Source: an uncultured Pseudomonadota bacterium
GTDB lineage: Bacteria > Babelota > Babeliae > Babelales > CAIQNR01
DNA length: 64,000 nt
Direction: 5' to 3'
Assembly (NCBI GenBank): GCA_964592275.1
Contig: CAZQDJ010000001.1
Coordinates: 4,770-68,769 of the forward strand
The translations under genes and the position numbers were made by a program. The notes under the pieces are model-generated. The model was not told where the DNA came from. It worked only from the letters and a program-made list of their open reading frames with translations, and searched no databases. Shown in pieces: positions 5,299 to 52,640 of this stretch (positions within the stretch are counted from its first letter, which is position 1; each line of letters begins with the position of its first letter).

Positions 5299-6236
5299 AA
5301 CGCATCCCTTTTTGAAGCATTTTTTATAAGCCGTATGGTGTCACCAATCCCCTTTTCTAAAGAACCCGAAAAAGAAAATCCCGTTGTTTTAAATTTATCC
5401 GAAAGCACCTCATAAGAAAGCGTGTTCATAATGGTATGTTTTACCAACGAAATTTCGCATTTTTCATTACATTCTTCAATGGCCGATACAACGTGCCGAA
5501 CGGTATGATTCCCTGTCACGATATTGTACGTTTCCCCCTCAAAAAGATTATTTTTAATAATCCACGCAAGGGCACGCACAGCATCATCCAAAGATAAATA
5601 GGGGCGCTTTTGATTAAGAGCAGTTTCCCAAATGGTCAATGGTTGCTTTACTACTGCTTGCCAACAAAATCGATTTACTGCTGTGTGAAAACGCATACCC
5701 TGAGAAACACCATAAATAGTACCAAACCGGCAAATTACACCTTTCAATCCATTACGTTCAAACATGTCTCGCAACAATATTTCTTCTTTAATTTTGCAGT
5801 CAGCATAAGGGCTTTGCGAAGATAGTTCGGTACAATATTCATCAACCGTTGCTTCTCGCGAACCATACAAACTTGTCGTTGAAGGAAAAATAAGAGGAAC
5901 CTCAAACAAAAGGCACGCTTGTGCAACAGCCTGTGTTCCCGAAAAATTGTTGTTATACATAGCCTCAGGCTTATCGGCAGTACCCGATGCATCAGTAGCA
6001 GCAGCCAAATGGATTACCACATCAGCATCTTTAAGGATTTTGCTCCAATCAACAGACTGAACTTTGCCTTCTATAAACTCATACGAAGCGGTAGTTGGTA
6101 AATTAAATAAACTGGCATAACGCTGCGTAGAAAGATCATCAATCATCACAATTGAAGGCTTATCAAAAAGATCTGGTAACTTCCTGATAAGCGCAGAACC
6201 AATATGCCCTAAAGCACCCGTTATCACACATTTCAT
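5295..6236 (-). CDS. NAD-dependent sugar epimerase/dehydratase/reductase (extended SDR)
   Basis: 313 aa. MKCVITGALGHIGSAL Rossmann motif and YADCK (YxxxK). Sits in the nucleotide-sugar cluster. Substrate unknown. Confidence 0.75.
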   Translation of the reverse strand: MKCVITGALGHIGSALIRKLPDLFDKPSIVMIDDLSTQRYASLFNLPTTASYEFIEGKVQSVDWSKILKDADVVIHLAAATDASGTADKPEAMYNNNFSGTQAVAQACLLFEVPLIFPSTTSLYGSREATVDEYCTELSSQSPYADCKIKEEILLRDMFERNGLKGVICRFGTIYGVSQGMRFHTAVNRFCWQAVVKQPLTIWETALNQKRPYLSLDDAVRALAWIIKNNLFEGETYNIVTGNHTVRHVVSAIEECNEKCEISLVKHTIMNTLSYEVLSDKFKTTGFSFSGSLEKGIGDTIRLIKNASKRDAL

Positions 6237-37003: not shown

Positions 37004-37453
37004 TTACTCTTGTCCACTAAGAGAGTTTTCATGTTCACAACTCCCTGAACCATAGCGCTGCTTCAGTAGCACTACCATTTTTTTTAATGCTGGAAAGTAA
37101 CGATTTTTAACGCACTCATAAATATGATCGGCAACTTTTTCATCATAAGTATGAGTTGTTTGATTTCTGTCATCAAGCATATCGAGCCATAACTTTTCAT
37201 TATCAATCAAATGCTGTTGAAAAGCATATTGAAGAGCTCCTCGTGGCGAATTCGTTTCTATTCCACACTTCTCTAACAATACGATTTTTAATGTCTTCCA
37301 GGCCAGTTCAAACGTATATTCAAACCGTTGAATACATGCATCAATCACAAATCTTTTACCTACAATAGGCTCATTGACGACTTCTTCAAGAGTAGTGACC
37401 GCTTTCTCAAAAACCTCAATTCTAAAAGCTGATTTTTCGAAACTCTTATGCAT
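37004..37453 (-). CDS. HEPN-domain nucleotidyltransferase substrate-binding protein (HI0074 family)
   Basis: 149 aa. R-x4-H motif RNQTTHTY. Overlaps the upstream nucleotidyltransferase gene by 8 nt. Confidence 0.75.
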   Translation of the reverse strand: MHKSFEKSAFRIEVFEKAVTTLEEVVNEPIVGKRFVIDACIQRFEYTFELAWKTLKIVLLEKCGIETNSPRGALQYAFQQHLIDNEKLWLDMLDDRNQTTHTYDEKVADHIYECVKNRYFPALKKMVVLLKQRYGSGSCEHENSLSGQE

Positions 37454-37799
37454 GTGTTTCCTTTCTATGAAATATAATTACGCGATCGTTCAAAATATTT
37501 TTCCTAAAAGGATTATCCTCTCTTATCGTATCAAATTGCACACAATCAATTTTTAATAGGGTGTCTGCCTGATTAATTACCTCCCTAAGGTCGTACCATT
37601 CATCTCTTGTTGCACGCGGGCAGACAATAGCAATATCAATATCAGATCGCTCTTGATTGTCTCCTCGAGCACGCGAACCATAGAGCCAAATTTCATCAAC
37701 GAAGGGAAATTCACACAGTTTTTTAAAAAAATTATAGTCTTTAATCCACGCATATTTTTCAGAACAAATTTCCATATTTTGTCTTTCATACGTCATCAT
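37446..37799 (-). CDS. minimal nucleotidyltransferase (MNT, HI0073-like)
   Basis: LYGSRARGDNQERSDIDIAIV (G-S-x9-12-D-x-D). The start is uncertain: ATGs occur at 37799 and 37775, and the ORF is open to 37838. Confidence 0.7.
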   Translation of the reverse strand: MMTYERQNMEICSEKYAWIKDYNFFKKLCEFPFVDEIWLYGSRARGDNQERSDIDIAIVCPRATRDEWYDLREVINQADTLLKIDCVQFDTIREDNPFRKNILNDRVIIFHRKETHA

Positions 37800-37850
37800 C
37801 AACCCGCTAAAACATAACATACAAGGATATGGTGACACTGTGTTATGCTT

Positions 37851-46812: not shown

Positions 46813-47772
46813 TTACTGCGCTTTATAACGAATACAAACAACCGTAATATCATCTCTACTCTTGCGAGTGCGCGCTTTTTCAGCCAACTGTTGCGCAATA
46901 GCCTTACAGTCCCTATTTTCCTTTATTCCAGCCATCACAAGATCATACGTCTCGTTATTAGTAAGCATATCCCAGTACCCATCAGAAGCGATAACAATAA
47001 CGTCATTTTCTTCTAAAGTAATTTTTGTAATTTCAGGTTCTGCATTCAAATCATAGAATTTATGCATATCAATATCGCCTAAAGAACGGCTTAATGCCAA
47101 CATTGCCCCTGGTTTACCTTTATGATCAACTGTAGAAAAAGGAATACTTTGTCGCGATGGACGAATAACTATCAAACGCGAATCGCCGACATTAGCAACC
47201 GTTAACACACCATCTTGCAAGGTTCCCGCAACTAACGTTGTCCCTGATTGTTGCGCATTTGCTAATTTTTTATATTTTTCTTGTAACTTTTTACATGCAG
47301 CTACCATGCCATATTTAATTTCTTTGTGTTTAAAAACTTCCAAAGGAAATTGTTCTACGGCATCCTGCGCAATAAGATCACCTTTATCTCCATGACCATC
47401 ACACACTGCAAACATTATTTTGCCAAGCATTGTTCCTGCAAATACACGATCCTGACATGGATACGCGCGCCGATTATTGCCCCCACGAATATTTTCAATC
47501 ATAAAAACACCATAGGTAACATCTTTATCAATGCGCTCTTCGTGCAACGTATGTATTTTTTCTACTGGGGTATAAAGAGGTGCAATCTGCTGTTGTGAAA
47601 TAAGAGCAGGTTGAGGAGTTGTATAATTGTGATATTGCATCGCAGCAGCTTTAGAAACAACACGAGCTGAGAGAGCTCTATTTGTTGAGAAAGGTTTTGC
47701 CGTTTGAGCATAAGCCAAAAATTGAGAGGTCCAAAAGACAAAAATCAGTGCAATTTTTATAAAATTTTTCAT
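46813..47772 (-). CDS. PP2C-family Ser/Thr phosphatase with N-terminal signal peptide
   Basis: About 319 aa from the ATG at 47772 (MKNFIKIALIFVFWTSQFLAYAQT). PP2C motifs VCDGHGD, VANVGDSR, IASDGYWD and DDITVVC. Confidence 0.85.
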   Translation of the reverse strand: MKNFIKIALIFVFWTSQFLAYAQTAKPFSTNRALSARVVSKAAAMQYHNYTTPQPALISQQQIAPLYTPVEKIHTLHEERIDKDVTYGVFMIENIRGGNNRRAYPCQDRVFAGTMLGKIMFAVCDGHGDKGDLIAQDAVEQFPLEVFKHKEIKYGMVAACKKLQEKYKKLANAQQSGTTLVAGTLQDGVLTVANVGDSRLIVIRPSRQSIPFSTVDHKGKPGAMLALSRSLGDIDMHKFYDLNAEPEITKITLEENDVIVIASDGYWDMLTNNETYDLVMAGIKENRDCKAIAQQLAEKARTRKSRDDITVVCIRYKAQ

Positions 47773-47897
47773 AACAAATAACCTTAAAATAAAGAGTGCA
47801 TCTACTCTCATAGTATCGATTATGAGCGCCTTTAGCAAAAGGTCCCTACATCAAATAGTCCCTTCTTCGCCTTTTTTGCAAAATTATATTTTTAGAA

Positions 47898-48393
47898 CAA
47901 GACGTAAGTATGCACTTCACGTGCAGGGCCAAACAGGTTGCTCACCCAACCTGTTTGGAAACAAGGGTGTAAACGTGCCGTTTAATCGCCAACGGATATG
48001 ATCCGGAAGCGTTGCTCCCGCTTCCTGCTGCATACGCCGTCGTCATACTCCGACGATATGCTCGATGATATCCTTATACGGATTATTATTTATGAATTCC
48101 AATGTCCCTTACTTTGTTTTTCGAAAATGACTATGCATTCACAGCACGTGCGGCGAGGAACGCACGTCGATCTGCCCAATTCCGCATGGGAGGTGAAGGT
48201 GGAAAACCTTCTTGGAGAAAATCAAAAATTTCCGTATCAGATCCATCTTGTATGAGGGGTTGTCGTACGCAAGGATGCAAGCCCGAGTTATGGTCGTTAA
48301 GCGGTCAAGCCGCAGGTTTGCACCCTTGTTTCCAAACAGGTTGGGTGAGCAACCTGTTTGGTGCTGCCCGCAAAGGGCATACTTGCGTCTTGC
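47898..48393. other. GC-rich non-coding element bounded by long inverted repeats (MITE-like, invertible segment, or structured RNA gene)
   Basis: The left arm (47898-47980) and right arm (48311-48393) are reverse complements. They share a perfect 40-bp core (CAAACAGGTTGCTCACCCAACCTGTTTGGAAACAAGGGTG) plus imperfect extensions. Each arm carries a 12-bp-stem hairpin. The interior has several GC-rich hairpins and no convincing ORF. Confidence 0.7.
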
Positions 48394-48485
48394 GCAAAAA
48401 AATAAAGATTCTTGCGCAGATACCGCTTTTTTGATAGGAAATATAGCATATTTTAACGATCCTTTTAACGAAAAAAGAGCCTCAC

Positions 48486-48728
48486 ATGAAAACACAAAAA
48501 TGTTTCTGTTTAGATCTTCTTAAATGTTCTTTTGCTCCTGAAGCTTGCAAATCGGACGCCAGCAAACACGAAGGATCTCATTCTAAGCATCATACCGCTG
48601 AACAAGATCATGGTGTTCATGGAAATCCAGCATCTCAAACAATAGCAAAAGAGTGTCCACTAGGTACTCGGTGCAATTCCGGCAAACATGTTGGCTATAC
48701 CGATATGTGCATAAAGAACAAAAAGTAA
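48486..48728 (+). CDS. small Cys/His-rich hypothetical protein
   Basis: 80-aa ORF with 7 Cys and 8 His (CFCLDLLKC..., HSKHH, CPLGTRCNSGKH). Weak RBS. Coding status uncertain. Confidence 0.3.
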   Translation: MKTQKCFCLDLLKCSFAPEACKSDASKHEGSHSKHHTAEQDHGVHGNPASQTIAKECPLGTRCNSGKHVGYTDMCIKNKK

Positions 48729-48772: not shown

Positions 48773-50719
48773 ATGTTTATAGATGTTAAGCTCCTTTCAG
48801 GTTTTTCAAAACCACTTACGTATCAAGTTCCTCAAGATTGGCACATTATCGTGCCAGGAATGCTTGTTAGGGTACCCTTGCGCGCAACACGAGTACCCGC
48901 TTTAGTACTACGAGTTTATAATGAAAAGCCAGACACCTTGTTTGCACTCAAAGAGGCCTGTTACGTCGAACCATTTCCTCAAGATGTTCATTATCTTTCT
49001 TACTTAAGGCAACTCGGTGCTCATCATCTCGTTGATGAAGTACATTTTATAAAACGAATGCAAAGTTTTTTGCACGAAAAAGAACGCTCTGAGCTGTTCT
49101 TTTTAGAAGAGTCAGCAGCTCCAAAAAAAATAGTCACATTAACGGAAGATCAGCAAACCATTGTTGACACATTAAAACCAGCCATCTCCAATTCTCTTTA
49201 CAGCCCTAATCTTATTCATGGAGTAACGGGATCAGGAAAAACAGAAGTCTATAAAGCACTGATTATTCATGCTTTTGCTCTTAAAAAAACAACTATGCTG
49301 TTACTTCCTGAAGTATCCCTTGCAGTACAATTTGAACGGATTCTAAAAGAACAACTTGCTTCTGATATCCCCGTGTTTGCTTTTCATTCAGCAGTAACAC
49401 CCAAACAAAAAAAACTATTATGGCAACATCTTATGCAAAACCAGCCAGTACTTATTATTGGCGTACATCTTCCTGTATTAGCCCCATGCTCAAACTTAGG
49501 GCTCATTATTATTGATGAAGAACACGAAACTGGGTTTCAAGAAAAAAAACACCCAAAAATAAATACTAAGCATGCCGCTTTATTGCGAGCACAACAATAC
49601 CAAATTCCTATCGTACTCGGTTCAGCAACTCCTTCTATTGCCTCACTTTACAATGTACAACACCGTGGATGGCGCTTGTTTTCACTCCAACACCGATTTG
49701 CAGGAAAGTTCCCCACAGTACAAGTAGTTTCACTCACCGATAAAAAACAACGCAAAAATTTCTGGATCAGCAATCAACTTTATGATGCGATAAAAGATCG
49801 TCTCATACGGCGCGAACAAACAATCATCTTTTTAAACCGACGCGGTGTCTGCTTTTTTGTGCAATGCAAAGCATGCTCCTTTATTTTTTCCTGCACTTCA
49901 TGTTCAGTAAGCCTTACGCTTCATGCCGATAACACCCTGCGCTGCCATTATTGTGGGTATCAACACACACAACCCCCCTCTTGCACTAAATGCAGCGGCA
50001 CTGAATTTCTCAAAAAAGGTATTGGTACTGAGCAAATTGTTACCATCTTACAAAAACTGTTTCCTTTTGCGCGCATTGGCAGAGCGGATCTTGATGCAAC
50101 CACCAACAAGCTTTTATGGAAAAAAACGATTACTGATTTTGAAAATAGAGAACTCGATATTCTAGTAGGCACGCAAACAATCACCAAGGGCTATCACTTT
50201 CCGCATGTTACCTTAGTCGGTGCAATCTGGGCAGACATCAACCTTAACTTCCCCTTTTACAATGCGCAAGAAACAACGCTACAGCAACTTATTCAGGTAG
50301 CAGGCAGAGCAGGAAGACAATCACATACGAGCACCGTCATCATTCAGACAATGACTGACCATCCACTCTTTAACCATTTGAATGAAGTGAATTATCTCGA
50401 TTTTTATGAGCAAGAACTTGATCGTAGAAAAATGCTCAGCTATCCCCCGCTCATCCGTTTTGCAGAGATTGAACTCAAACATAAAAATGAAGAGGTTGTT
50501 GACCAAGAGGCACAGCACTGCGCCGCTACTCTTATGCGCTTTGAAGGCATTACGGTTTTAGGGCCTGCGCAACCTCCTGTCGCCCGCATCAAAACAATAG
50601 TAAGTAGAAAAATGTATTTGAAAGCACACAGCTTTACTCTACTACAAAAAGCATTTAGTTCCCTTGATCAAAAAAAGTATAAGAGTACATTATTTTTCAC
50701 TCCAGACCCACTGAGCTAA
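48773..50719 (+). CDS. priA: primosomal protein N' (replication restart helicase PriA)
   Basis: 648 aa. Walker A GVTGSGKTE, DEEH box IIIDEEHE, and a Cys-rich zinc-binding insert (CKACS..CTSCS...CHYCG...CTKCSG). Confidence 0.9.
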   Translation: MFIDVKLLSGFSKPLTYQVPQDWHIIVPGMLVRVPLRATRVPALVLRVYNEKPDTLFALKEACYVEPFPQDVHYLSYLRQLGAHHLVDEVHFIKRMQSFLHEKERSELFFLEESAAPKKIVTLTEDQQTIVDTLKPAISNSLYSPNLIHGVTGSGKTEVYKALIIHAFALKKTTMLLLPEVSLAVQFERILKEQLASDIPVFAFHSAVTPKQKKLLWQHLMQNQPVLIIGVHLPVLAPCSNLGLIIIDEEHETGFQEKKHPKINTKHAALLRAQQYQIPIVLGSATPSIASLYNVQHRGWRLFSLQHRFAGKFPTVQVVSLTDKKQRKNFWISNQLYDAIKDRLIRREQTIIFLNRRGVCFFVQCKACSFIFSCTSCSVSLTLHADNTLRCHYCGYQHTQPPSCTKCSGTEFLKKGIGTEQIVTILQKLFPFARIGRADLDATTNKLLWKKTITDFENRELDILVGTQTITKGYHFPHVTLVGAIWADINLNFPFYNAQETTLQQLIQVAGRAGRQSHTSTVIIQTMTDHPLFNHLNEVNYLDFYEQELDRRKMLSYPPLIRFAEIELKHKNEEVVDQEAQHCAATLMRFEGITVLGPAQPPVARIKTIVSRKMYLKAHSFTLLQKAFSSLDQKKYKSTLFFTPDPLS

Positions 50720-51831: not shown

Positions 51832-52305
51832 TTACTGAGTTATCCGTTTTTTAATGCGATCGAAAGTTGAAATGAGAACAGGTATTGATTTCTGAACTTG
51901 ATTTAAAAAATCTGCTTGCAACTCTGCCTTGTTAGCATATTCATGTGAAAGATTATTTCTAAGATCACGCAAATCGCTCCATTGATAACTACTATCAATA
52001 ATCTTCAATTTTTCTAGTAAATTAAGTCTATCTAGAACAGCGACTACTGGTTGCTCTTTAATCGTATCTAAAAAATCCGGAAATATCTTGTCTGCCAGGG
52101 TATCCTGCACATGCGTAAATCGAAAAAGTAAAGCGTCACAACGATCCTGTTCATTAAATGTAATATTTTCCACTTTTTCGGCTGTGAAAGGGAATAGGTA
52201 TTCTAAATTCCCCAGTAACCGCTTTATATTAGTTAGATGTATCTCAACTGCATCAAGATTCTCTTCCAACGATTGATTTCTTTTTTTTATTACACGTGCA
52301 TTCAT
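51832..52305 (-). CDS. HEPN-domain protein (HepT/DUF86-like toxin candidate)
   Basis: 157 aa. R-x4-H motif in LRDLRNNLSHEY. Start overlaps the stop of the upstream MNT gene. Confidence 0.7.
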   Translation of the reverse strand: MNARVIKKRNQSLEENLDAVEIHLTNIKRLLGNLEYLFPFTAEKVENITFNEQDRCDALLFRFTHVQDTLADKIFPDFLDTIKEQPVVAVLDRLNLLEKLKIIDSSYQWSDLRDLRNNLSHEYANKAELQADFLNQVQKSIPVLISTFDRIKKRITQ

Positions 52306-52640
52306 ACGAGCTTCACCCCTTCTTCTTTAGCAACTGAATAAATCAATTTATCTTCTGTATCTGATGCTAGGTGTAAAACAACGTCAATTTTTTGTTCTCC
52401 AATAGTAGCCCAAAGGTCACCCACAAACCTTCTTTTTTTCTGATAAGCACTCTCAAGCGACTCTGATGTTTCAATGTATAAATCGATATCACCACCTTTT
52501 TTTTCAAGCTCAACACGTGAACCAAAAATCCAAAGATGGTCATCTAGTCCAAAATTTTTCTTGAATGCAGCCTTTATTGCTTCAACATCATACTCACGCA
52601 ACCGTATTTTAGGATGCATTGCTTTATTCTTTTTTATCAC
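52302..52640 (-). CDS. minimal nucleotidyltransferase (MntA-like antitoxin candidate)
   Basis: 112 aa. GTG start with a GGAG RBS 7 nt upstream. IFGSRVELEKKGGDIDLYIE (G-S...D-x-D). Confidence 0.7.
   Translation of the reverse strand: MIKKNKAMHPKIRLREYDVEAIKAAFKKNFGLDDHLWIFGSRVELEKKGGDIDLYIETSESLESAYQKKRRFVGDLWATIGEQKIDVVLHLASDTEDKLIYSVAKEEGVKLV

Follow-up and report, generated by a model that had tools for sequence, protein, structure and literature searches.

Several classes of bacterial non-coding sequence resemble the element described here, a GC-rich, hairpin-dense segment of ~552 nt found in a 64-kb stretch of DNA from an uncultured bacterium (contig CAZQDJ010000001.1; the whole stretch of 64,000 nt is hereafter called the window), where it lies upstream of priA. 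This element is one copy of an undescribed non-coding interspersed family of Dependentiae (TM6/Babeliales-like) genomes. Dependentiae are uncultured or hard-to-culture intracellular bacteria of protists. Literature searches, on the core sequence as well as on repeats of Dependentiae or Babela, revealed no description of such elements, nor did we find any description of Dependentiae non-coding DNA or RNA.

REP/BIME sequences and REPINs, which are associated with RAYT (a Y1 HUH enzyme), are likewise non-coding, GC-rich extragenic palindromes. The functional form of REPINs consists of two inverted units, as it does here, and in both cases the hairpins are maintained by compensatory change. The likeness extends to long residence in the genome without target duplication and to mobilization in trans, the latter being presumed for our elements. 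However, the units that we describe are 200-270 nt long and comprise three hairpins and an inner domain, whereas REPs measure 20-40 nt. The GTAG found 5' of REP hairpins is not conserved before the first hairpin of our units (GTAG, GTAA, GCAA). Moreover, REPs occur in hundreds of copies and only a handful were seen here, and we identified no counterpart of the RAYT gene of REPINs, with no transposase domain in 35 window open reading frames (ORFs).

The bacterial MITEs (transposable elements of the miniature inverted-repeat type), such as Correia/CREE, ERIC, RUP, the Rickettsia palindromic elements and the Coxiella QMITEs, are also short, non-coding and intergenic. They share with our family the terminal inverted symmetry, the multiple dispersed copies, the presence/absence among relatives and the folding into long hairpins, and the ~552 nt of our element fall within their size range (under ~600 bp). 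In contrast to MITEs, target-site duplication is not consistent in our elements and no insertion sequence (IS) sharing their ends was found. Copies of MITEs are near-identical, whereas the copies analyzed here are mosaic and diverged, with covarying internal hairpins, and each element is a head-to-head dimer of a homologous unit.

In the IS200/IS605 and PATE systems, subterminal hairpins are recognized as folded single-stranded DNA through their structure plus a short sequence, and no target duplication is made; a similar mode of recognition may apply to our elements. But IS200/IS605 elements lack terminal inverted repeats and have both hairpins read on one strand, in one orientation. Unlike in PATE, the hairpin flanks, linkers and end motifs are mirrored here (GCAGCA-H2 vs H2'-TGCCGC, where H2 is the second hairpin of each arm). 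The TnpA/TnpB gene of IS200/IS605 was not found here, nor was any match to omega-RNA. Integron attC sites were considered as well: their consensus comprises the R''/R' core sites RYYYAAC ... GTTRRRY and extrahelical bases within 57-141 nt. We rejected this candidate, since the H2 sequence (T)CCAAAC ... GTTTGGA misfits the consensus at variable positions, its stem is perfect and the element is ~550 nt long.

Finally, the large RNAs OLE, GOLLD, ROOL, HEARO and raiA resemble our element in their length of several hundred nucleotides, in a high GC content within an AT-rich genome and in their many covarying hairpins, and some of them ride mobile elements. Unlike these RNAs, our element has no Rfam match, a mirrored two-unit design, almost no G·U pairs and no defined transcription signals, and it is not syntenic between relatives. 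We place the family with the bacterial interspersed palindromic elements, among which its two-unit, multi-hairpin design is unusual.

A non-coding element with inverted arms

The window is part of a bacterial chromosome, with genes for PolA, Rho, RecD2, AtpA, Alr and TyrS, and the named homologues of its priA are from Candidatus Dependentiae or Babeliales. A repeat search of the window detected two inverted arms of 101 nt each (47889-47989 and 48301-48401), which are 84% complementary and spaced by 311 nt. The original prediction, made by reading the sequence without database searches, had delimited the element at 47898-48393. The arms are indeed inverted there, but conservation reaches ~47871-48422. 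It had also located the element between divergent PP2C and priA genes; both genes flank it, although an 80-aa ORF (48486-48728) intervenes before priA, and the spacer between PP2C and this small ORF measures 714 nt.

Much of the predicted fine structure was recovered. A perfect 12-bp hairpin with a 6-nt loop was found inside each arm (47929-47958 and 48332-48361), and the 30-mer hairpin core has exactly two occurrences in the 64 kb, one per strand, against a shuffled expectation of 0.00. The 40-bp perfect core that had been noticed is contained in a 41-nt core, CCAAACAGGTTGCTCACCCAACCTGTTTGGAAACAAGGGTG, identical between the two arms in our arm alignment. The outer extension of the arms reads CAAGACG(T/C)AAGTATGC and includes the T opposite G described previously, and all four hairpins proposed for the interior are present (GGAAGCG/CGCTTCC, ACGTGCG/CGCACGT, GAAGGT/ACCTTC and GCGG/CCGC). 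The GC content of positions 47892-48420 is 48.0%, compared with 37.7% for the window and 37-39% for the flanks, and this segment is the most GC-rich 529-nt stretch of the window (top 0.1%). Five 60-nt blocks of the element reach 53-57% GC, in line with the ~53-58% counted by hand. ORFs within the element have no Pfam match and none of them is kept in the homologues, as anticipated for spurious frames; the window element is without coding capacity. Relative to shuffled sequences, its folding z-scores are -14 and -13 on the two strands, mostly because of the long arm-to-arm duplex.

Copies are dispersed in related genomes

We searched sequence collections for homologues of the element. A hairpin scan of one genome per species yielded one true homologue, the contig L001 of a metagenome-assembled genome. 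A 20-nt core scan of the JGI metagenomes identified five further contigs (L005, L006, L009, L010 and L012), the remaining matches being due to chance. A covariance model of the arm (R1) recovered the arms of these six contigs at 115-130 bits and added a second copy on L010 (L010-1 and L010-2). In the complete copies, R1 also gave weaker matches on the opposite strand at the far end (50 bits in L005, 36 in L006 and 17 in L012), and a model built for the far-end arm type (R2) matched both ends of every copy. With R2, neither the window nor 60 kb of contigs from relatives gave a further copy. Altogether, the material consists of ~9 copies or fragments from three or more related genomes. Because the scans of the collections demanded an exact core of 20-28 nt, diverged family members were missed.

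The L012 locus was found with identical spacing in two other samples (three in total), one of which is the sample of L010; the metagenome copies therefore come from one lake population genome with at least 5-6 diverged copies. The window organism is closely related to it: a contig of the same metagenome has a priA with 91% identity. The neighboring genes differ at each copy: Fic and an M23 peptidase; MotA and a hydrolase; an ankyrin/RING protein and gltX; or hypothetical proteins. Copies occur in both orientations relative to their neighbors. These data establish the existence of the family and the dispersal of its copies.

The window element aligns collinearly with L005 over 490 nt at 72% identity. 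Its right inner domain is ~90% identical to L005 5915-6060, with differences that preserve the hairpins, and its left inner domain is 75% identical to L010-2 over 249 nt. Copies from at least three genomes, in which the rest of the intergenic DNA is not alignable, have the same 41-nt core. One copy (L001 2045-2232) consists of a single unit whose ends, ACAAGACGTAGGTG and CACCTACATCTT, form 14-nt terminal inverted repeats.

Local hairpins covary, not the arm-to-arm duplex

The far-end arm of L005, L006 and L012 mirrors the near arm but has diverged from it. The longest inter-arm repeats at the arm positions are 33 nt in L005, 14 nt in L006 and 36 nt in L012, with 75-100% complementarity. Although this inter-arm duplex is not conserved, three local hairpins are retained in each arm (H1, H2 and H3 from outside inwards). 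H1 varies as GCAC/GTGC, GCCC/GGGC and GCGC/GCGC, and the central pair of H3 occurs as G-C, C-G, A-T and T-A. In the common arm type H2 is invariant, together with the linker GGAAACAAGGGTG, whereas in the other arm type H2 is replaced by a different covarying stem (e.g., GGGTC/GACCC vs GGGTT/AACCC). In three copies, the loop of H2 holds a stem extension of 33 nt. The three-hairpin layout is identical in these two diverged arm types.

We examined covariation on an alignment of 11 arms, as had been suggested when the element was first noticed. In this alignment, which was fitted to the model, 99.2% of the 250 cells are paired and both partners have changed in 8 of the 23 pairs. Neither the number of paired cells, nor that of double-sided changes, nor the covariation score was attained in any of 500 shuffles, and slid controls were only 24-48% paired. 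The best-supported helices contain 2 G·U and 2 A·C among the 250 cells. The inner domains show the same tendency: the consensus fold of the left inner domain with L010-2, L009 and L006 includes five pairs changed on both sides. The hairpins of the family therefore covary, almost purely by Watson-Crick changes, and neither strand is favored.

The two arms of the window copy differ by three compensatory pairs, one in H1 (GCAC/GTGC vs GCCC/GGGC) and two in H3. These pairs keep the local hairpins intact but create mismatches in the arm-to-arm duplex. The 101-nt repeat of the window exists because both of its arms belong to the same arm type, and the long duplex does not appear to be the selected structure of the window copy. 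This runs counter to one of the three explanations initially offered, a large RNA closed by a long helix: the inter-arm repeats of the homologues span only 14-36 nt and the compensatory pairs of the window arms break the duplex. The hairpins themselves may nevertheless have a role in RNA.

Mirror-dimer architecture

In every complete copy, the model of one arm (R1 or R2) also matches the far end, on the other strand. The end motif GCRCAAGA is concentrated in the elements, with 10 of the 24 sites in 127 kb falling within 4 kb of elements; there it lies at or near both ends and always points inward, being on the plus strand at left ends and on the minus strand at right ends. A second motif, YCTGATACGGA, occurs once per half, mirrored, on either side of an AT-rich center. 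Homology in reverse orientation covers whole halves: L010-1 and L010-2 are 71% identical in reverse over 219 nt, the right arm of the window is 85% identical to the left unit of L005 over 146 nt in reverse orientation, and the module beside the left arm of L005 is found inverted beside the right arm of L010-2 (81% over 84 nt). Given this reverse homology, the halves are interchangeable, recombining units of ~200-270 nt. A full element consists of two homologous units joined tail to tail in mirror orientation, and the units are shuffled between copies. From the outside inwards, a unit is composed of a T-run, GCRCAAGA(CGTAGGT), the hairpins H1/H2/H3, a small folded inner domain, YCTGATACGGA and an AT-rich tail.

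The limits of the window element follow the R2 covariance model, which matches 47871-47994 (minus strand) and 48296-48422 (plus strand). Its parts and the flanking genes are as follows.

47871..48422, no strand assigned: whole element, ~552 nt, limits set by family conservation
47871..47878, partner at 48426-48433, no strand assigned: weak candidate for a target-site duplication, CTTTTTTG
47892..48000, plus strand: left arm, a '5'-type' module (model R1, 129.8 bits)
47895-47909, plus strand: outer motif of the left arm, GAACAAGACGTAAGT
47911-47925, plus strand: left-arm hairpin H1, covarying
47929-47958, plus strand: left-arm hairpin H2, covariation tested on the arm alignment
47957-47969, plus strand: left-arm linker, GGAAACAAGGGTG
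47970-47984, plus strand: left-arm hairpin H3, covarying
48001..48095, plus strand: inner domain of the left unit, with the hairpin GGAAGCG/CGCTTCC and the closing pairings GGATAT/ATATCC and TAATC/GATTA
48072-48082, plus strand: motif CCTTATACGGA in the inner domain of the left unit
48096..48145, no strand assigned: AT-rich center between the mirror units (35% GC in block 48040-48099, 45% GC in block 48100-48159)
48146..48295, plus strand: inner domain of the right unit, with the hairpins ACGTGCG/CGCACGT and GAAGGT/ACCTTC
48231-48241, minus strand: mirrored motif TCTGATACGGA in the inner domain of the right unit
48290..48398, minus strand: right arm, a second '5'-type' module in reverse (model R1, 125.1 bits on the minus strand)
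48306-48320, 48332-48361 and 48365-48379: right-arm hairpins H3', H2' and H1'
48388-48395, minus strand: end motif TCTTGCGC of the right arm
48402..48418, plus strand: conserved 3' tail motif 'M2', ATAAAGATTCTTGCGCA
48410-48417: second TCTTGCGC end motif, within tail motif M2
46813..47772, minus strand: PP2C phosphatase gene (Pfam PP2C, E = 2.7e-24), outside the element
48486-48728, plus strand: 80-aa ORF rich in Cys and His, without Pfam family, outside the element
48773-50719, plus strand: priA (Pfam PriA domains), outside the element

The left-arm hairpins of the window copy fold autonomously, both as RNA and as DNA. A helix closing a single unit, formed by the outer motif and its inner complement, was also considered and rejected, as it is absent from the minimum free energy (MFE) folds of the left unit of the window and of the L001 unit. 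The length of the center varies among copies, and the two GATACGG motifs of L006 are only ~31 nt apart. The tail motif M2 is found exactly or nearly so at the equivalent position in L005, L006, L010-1 and L012; it is also present, inverted, at the left end of L005. At this end of L005, we observed an extra element end ~30 nt beyond the left arm (5601-5660), with the inverted tail motif and an H1-like hairpin. Together with the right tail (6124-6176), it forms a 53-nt inverted repeat (79%), which suggests a nested or tandem insertion.

The element is absent from the same site in relatives

Comparison of the priA locus between relatives shows that the presence of the element differs among them. 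In L014, whose priA is 84% identical to that of the window, the order of PP2C, small ORF and priA is retained but the spacer between PP2C and the small ORF is only 236 nt, without any match to the arm model. The flanks of this spacer align with those of the window on either side of the element. The element was also not found upstream of priA in L017, a 91% relative. In a 92% relative, compared by spacer length alone, the spacer has 400 nt, against 714 nt in the window. Finally, the PP2C-priA spacer of a relative with 75% priA identity carries an unrelated GC-rich segment. The element is sporadic and not syntenic. We looked for a second empty site at nucleotide resolution, but found close homologues of the hydrolase adjacent to L012 only within its own population.

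This segment of the 75% relative lies at L015 5735-5990 and was also observed in L016. It contains nested inverted repeats (e.g., GCGTCGGGGATCCAGT / ACTGGATCCCCGACGC) and has no match to Rfam or to the arm model; the small ORF is not called there.

The candidate target-site duplication CTTTTTTG is the sole 8-nt direct word common to both flanks of the window element, and the L014 empty site presents a single T6 run where it would correspond. This repeat may be a chance event in T-rich DNA. No consistent target-site duplication was detected in L005, L006, L012 and L001, a weak negative result given that the exact boundaries are uncertain, and only the window shares an 8-mer.

Strand preference and transcription signals

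Several properties distinguish the two strands of each unit. The outward-reading strand contains more G than C in 12 of 12 units and is favored by MFE in 11 of the 13 half-segments folded, and purine-rich GNRA-like loops (GCAA, GCAAA, GCA) are all found on the outward-reading strand of their unit. For whole elements, folding energies have mixed signs, with no consistent strand preference. Folding z-scores are alike on both strands, and the disappearance of the MFE asymmetry in z-scores indicates that it reflects base composition (G/C skew). We therefore rejected the assignment of a strand from folding energy. With DNA parameters, the arms fold on both strands (z of -3.4 to -4.8). A few wobbles that are informative on the strand favor the plus strand, in H3' (window and L006) and in the H2 extension (L006 and L009). 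No excess of sigma-70-like promoters or terminators was found, the single promoter-like match being below the chance expectation.

The use of G·U pairs in RNA families is typically far above the level that we observed in the best-supported helices. Near-pure Watson-Crick covariation would result from a need for both strands to fold, be it as single-stranded or as cruciform DNA, and also from the correction of imperfect palindromes by template-switch mutations.

Searches for known RNAs, enzymes and mobile DNA

Screening the whole window against Rfam 15 gave no match at gathering score; around the element, even E up to 10 brought nothing relevant, and five homologue loci gave no match in the elements at E up to 1. 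These negatives include RNase P, tmRNA, 6S, SRP, OLE, GOLLD, ROOL, HEARO and group I/II introns. ARAGORN found no tRNA or tmRNA, so the original failure to recognize a known RNA signature holds with both tools. We scanned 35 genuine ORFs of the window and detected no transposase or recombinase domain, and neither the window nor ~250 kb of related loci yielded an autonomous IS that shares the ends of the element. An all-against-all comparison of ORFs between loci revealed that only ankyrin repeats and the spurious ORFs inside the elements are shared.

We also discarded several other origins. Plasmid or phage descent was rejected because PLSDB and INPHARED returned no blastn match and IMG/VR only a chance match to a tape-measure gene. 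A CsrA-type GGA sponge was rejected because the number of GGA on the plus strand, counted by eye, is close to chance.

Nature of the element

The dispersal of the copies, their presence/absence among relatives, the mirrored ends, the existence of single-unit and fragment copies, the recombining units and the tolerance to insertions are best accounted for by selfish mobile DNA. The best reading of the family is a non-autonomous, structure-dependent selfish mobile DNA of the MITE/REPIN kind, to which we assign a probability of roughly 50%. We infer that mobility caused the dispersal of the copies and that it is folded DNA that is recognized. Movement or copying of the element would depend on a trans-acting enzyme whose gene lies elsewhere in the genome. 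This enzyme would recognize the folded hairpins, probably in single-stranded DNA, together with the invariant H2/linker sequence, and would leave no target duplication, while units would recombine freely between copies. The lack of consistent target duplication would fit an enzyme of the HUH/Y1 type or another non-DDE enzyme. Among the three explanations of the original prediction, the MITE-like element is the best supported: the sequence is non-coding, occupies many unrelated sites, has mirror ends and has an empty site in a relative. However, it is no ordinary MITE: the copies are old and mosaic, with compensatory changes in their hairpins, no consistent target-site duplication and no partner transposase. 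Many near-identical copies with empty sites had been named as the mark of an ordinary MITE; L014 does provide an element-less site, but the copies are diverged and not near-identical.

Several observations weigh against selfish mobility. Target-site duplication is inconsistent and the sole shared 8-mer, that of the window, is T-rich. We found neither an autonomous partner with the same ends nor a candidate enzyme among the 35 window ORFs and the neighbors of the copies. A recent burst of transposition would have produced near-identical copies, whereas copies from a single genome differ strongly and are mosaics. The compensatory changes, together with the invariance of the 41-nt core, indicate selection over a long time, which a functional RNA or a DNA site useful to the host would explain equally well, and high GC content in an AT-rich genome combined with GNRA-like loops (GCAA, GCAAA) is typical of structured RNAs. 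In addition, only ~9 copies or fragments from three or more related genomes are available, and the empty-site comparison was made at 84% protein identity, such that loss instead of gain is possible and the exact boundaries are uncertain.

As the leading alternative, the copies may be a dispersed family of genes for structured non-coding RNA, which would encode either one plus-strand RNA of ~530 nt or, as mirror-image paralogous genes, one RNA of ~200-270 nt per unit; the invariant H2 and linker would then be a binding site for a protein or an RNA. The position of the element as the most GC-rich stretch of 64 kb in an AT-rich genome, the covariation of three hairpins per arm and of several inner hairpins, and the invariance of the 41-nt core across genomes are all in agreement with such genes, as are the GNRA-like loops of the outward-reading strand, the excess of G over C on this strand in all 12 units, its lower MFE in 11 of 13 half-segments and the few wobbles in favor of the plus strand (H3' in the window and L006, H2 extension in L006 and L009). 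RNA genes would nonetheless have to be reconciled with the presence of only 2 G·U pairs among 250 cells of the best-supported helices, with equal z-scores on both strands that reduce the MFE asymmetry to composition, and with the lack of any Rfam match even at E up to 10 and of a conserved promoter or terminator (the lone promoter-like match being below the number expected by chance). Moreover, relatives do not retain the element at the orthologous site, its orientation is random relative to its neighbors, and among the copies are some that are truncated, interrupted by an IS or associated with a GIY-YIG cassette. We consider this explanation rather unlikely. A further alternative is a decaying relic whose arms would be the leftover ends of a larger element such as an IS, prophage or integrative element, without present activity. 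Watson-Crick-only 'covariation' is the expected product of quasi-palindrome correction by template switching, and the hairpins would be kept by this process rather than by selection. Fragments and mosaic copies do occur and no enzyme gene lies nearby. Yet decay does not readily explain a 41-nt core that is identical in at least three genomes with otherwise unalignable intergenic DNA, nor a three-hairpin layout common to two diverged arm types, and no gene-carrying relative with the same ends was seen at any locus. A relic is accordingly improbable.

It had also been proposed that the element is an invertible segment, in which recombination between the 101-nt arms would invert the 311-nt interior and change how the divergent PP2C and small-ORF/priA genes are expressed. 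Long inverted arms between divergent genes would suit such a switch, as would the three short-read assemblies that break inside the element. These breaks, however, fall exactly in the loop of a palindromic hairpin, where de Bruijn assemblers break without any inversion. No recombinase domain was found in the 35 genuine window ORFs scanned, the adjacent genes being PP2C and priA, and most members of the family lack long identical arms: other members have short, imperfect inter-arm repeats and are found in convergent or co-directional gene contexts. A switch is thus very improbable.

Returning to selfish mobile DNA, a bolder version can be proposed, which we advance only tentatively. The unit of 200-270 nt might be a new self-folding mobile nucleic acid of an obligate intracellular phylum, with mirror units copied or transcribed outward from the AT-rich center. 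The three-hairpin arm, with its invariant 41-nt H2/linker, would serve as the recognition module of an enzyme that makes no target duplications. The family would then be a REPIN-like replicator whose units exceed all described ones 5-10x in size and by far in their degree of structure; put differently, it would be a new class of structured RNAs, paired as mirror images and residing on mobile DNA.

Insertions, assembly breaks and neighboring genes

Some copies are associated with inserted DNA. An IS-like ORF truncates L010-1: it spans L010 111-1124 and abuts the truncated 5' side of this copy, and its C-terminal signature looks DDE-type, judging by the appearance of the sequence. At the other end of the contig (L010 11062-11181), the right arm of L010-2 is interrupted inside H2'. 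Both L010 copies are thus cut by inserted DNA.

L001 contains a cassette of mobile appearance with a ~100-aa GIY-YIG nuclease gene and its own hairpin-containing inverted repeats of ~87 nt. The cassette was located at 2308-2930 in L001, 2886-3411 in L022 and 2880-3470 in L018. Its repeats are homologous between loci, with complementarity of 99% in L001 and 90% in L022. In L001, a GIY-YIG segment of ~790 bp is bracketed by a 14-bp direct repeat, CACACCTACATCTT, and at the orthologous gltX-adjacent locus in L018-L021 the GIY-YIG gene is oppositely oriented. A link between the element and a GIY-YIG homing endonuclease was considered and rejected, as this is a separate cassette and the homologue loci L018-L022 are without the arm.

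Three independent short-read (Logan) assemblies break within the element (L004 and L013 at position 1, L025 at its end), and two Logan contigs begin exactly in the loop of the right-arm H2' (window 48343). These breaks are an artefact of palindrome assembly, which will hide such elements in metagenome assemblies.

As for the flanking genes, the pair formed by the small ORF and priA recurs in Logan contigs and in relatives, and relatives also preserve the gene order at PP2C. The small ORF lies at the same place 5' of priA in relatives, with 75 aa in L014 and 77 aa in the P0121 contig. Elsewhere in the window, an adjacent gene pair (37004-37838) encodes a Polbeta-type nucleotidyltransferase and an NTase substrate-binding protein, and a further small Polbeta-type ORF is present at ~52302-52640; these modules resemble toxin-antitoxin-like modules.

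Implications for Dependentiae

The element family constitutes a marker of genome dynamics in Dependentiae, as it breaks short-read assemblies and attracts insertions of IS and GIY-YIG sequences. It also allows a clean test of what causes the covariation of hairpins among bacterial repeats: selection on RNA, selection on folded DNA or mutational correction of palindromes. If a partner enzyme exists, it would recognize a hairpin-plus-linker site of 41 nt that is invariant across genomes, the type of specificity that made other hairpin-recognizing transposases and guide structures useful. If the elements are transcribed, they would add a class of large structured RNA from a neglected phylum.

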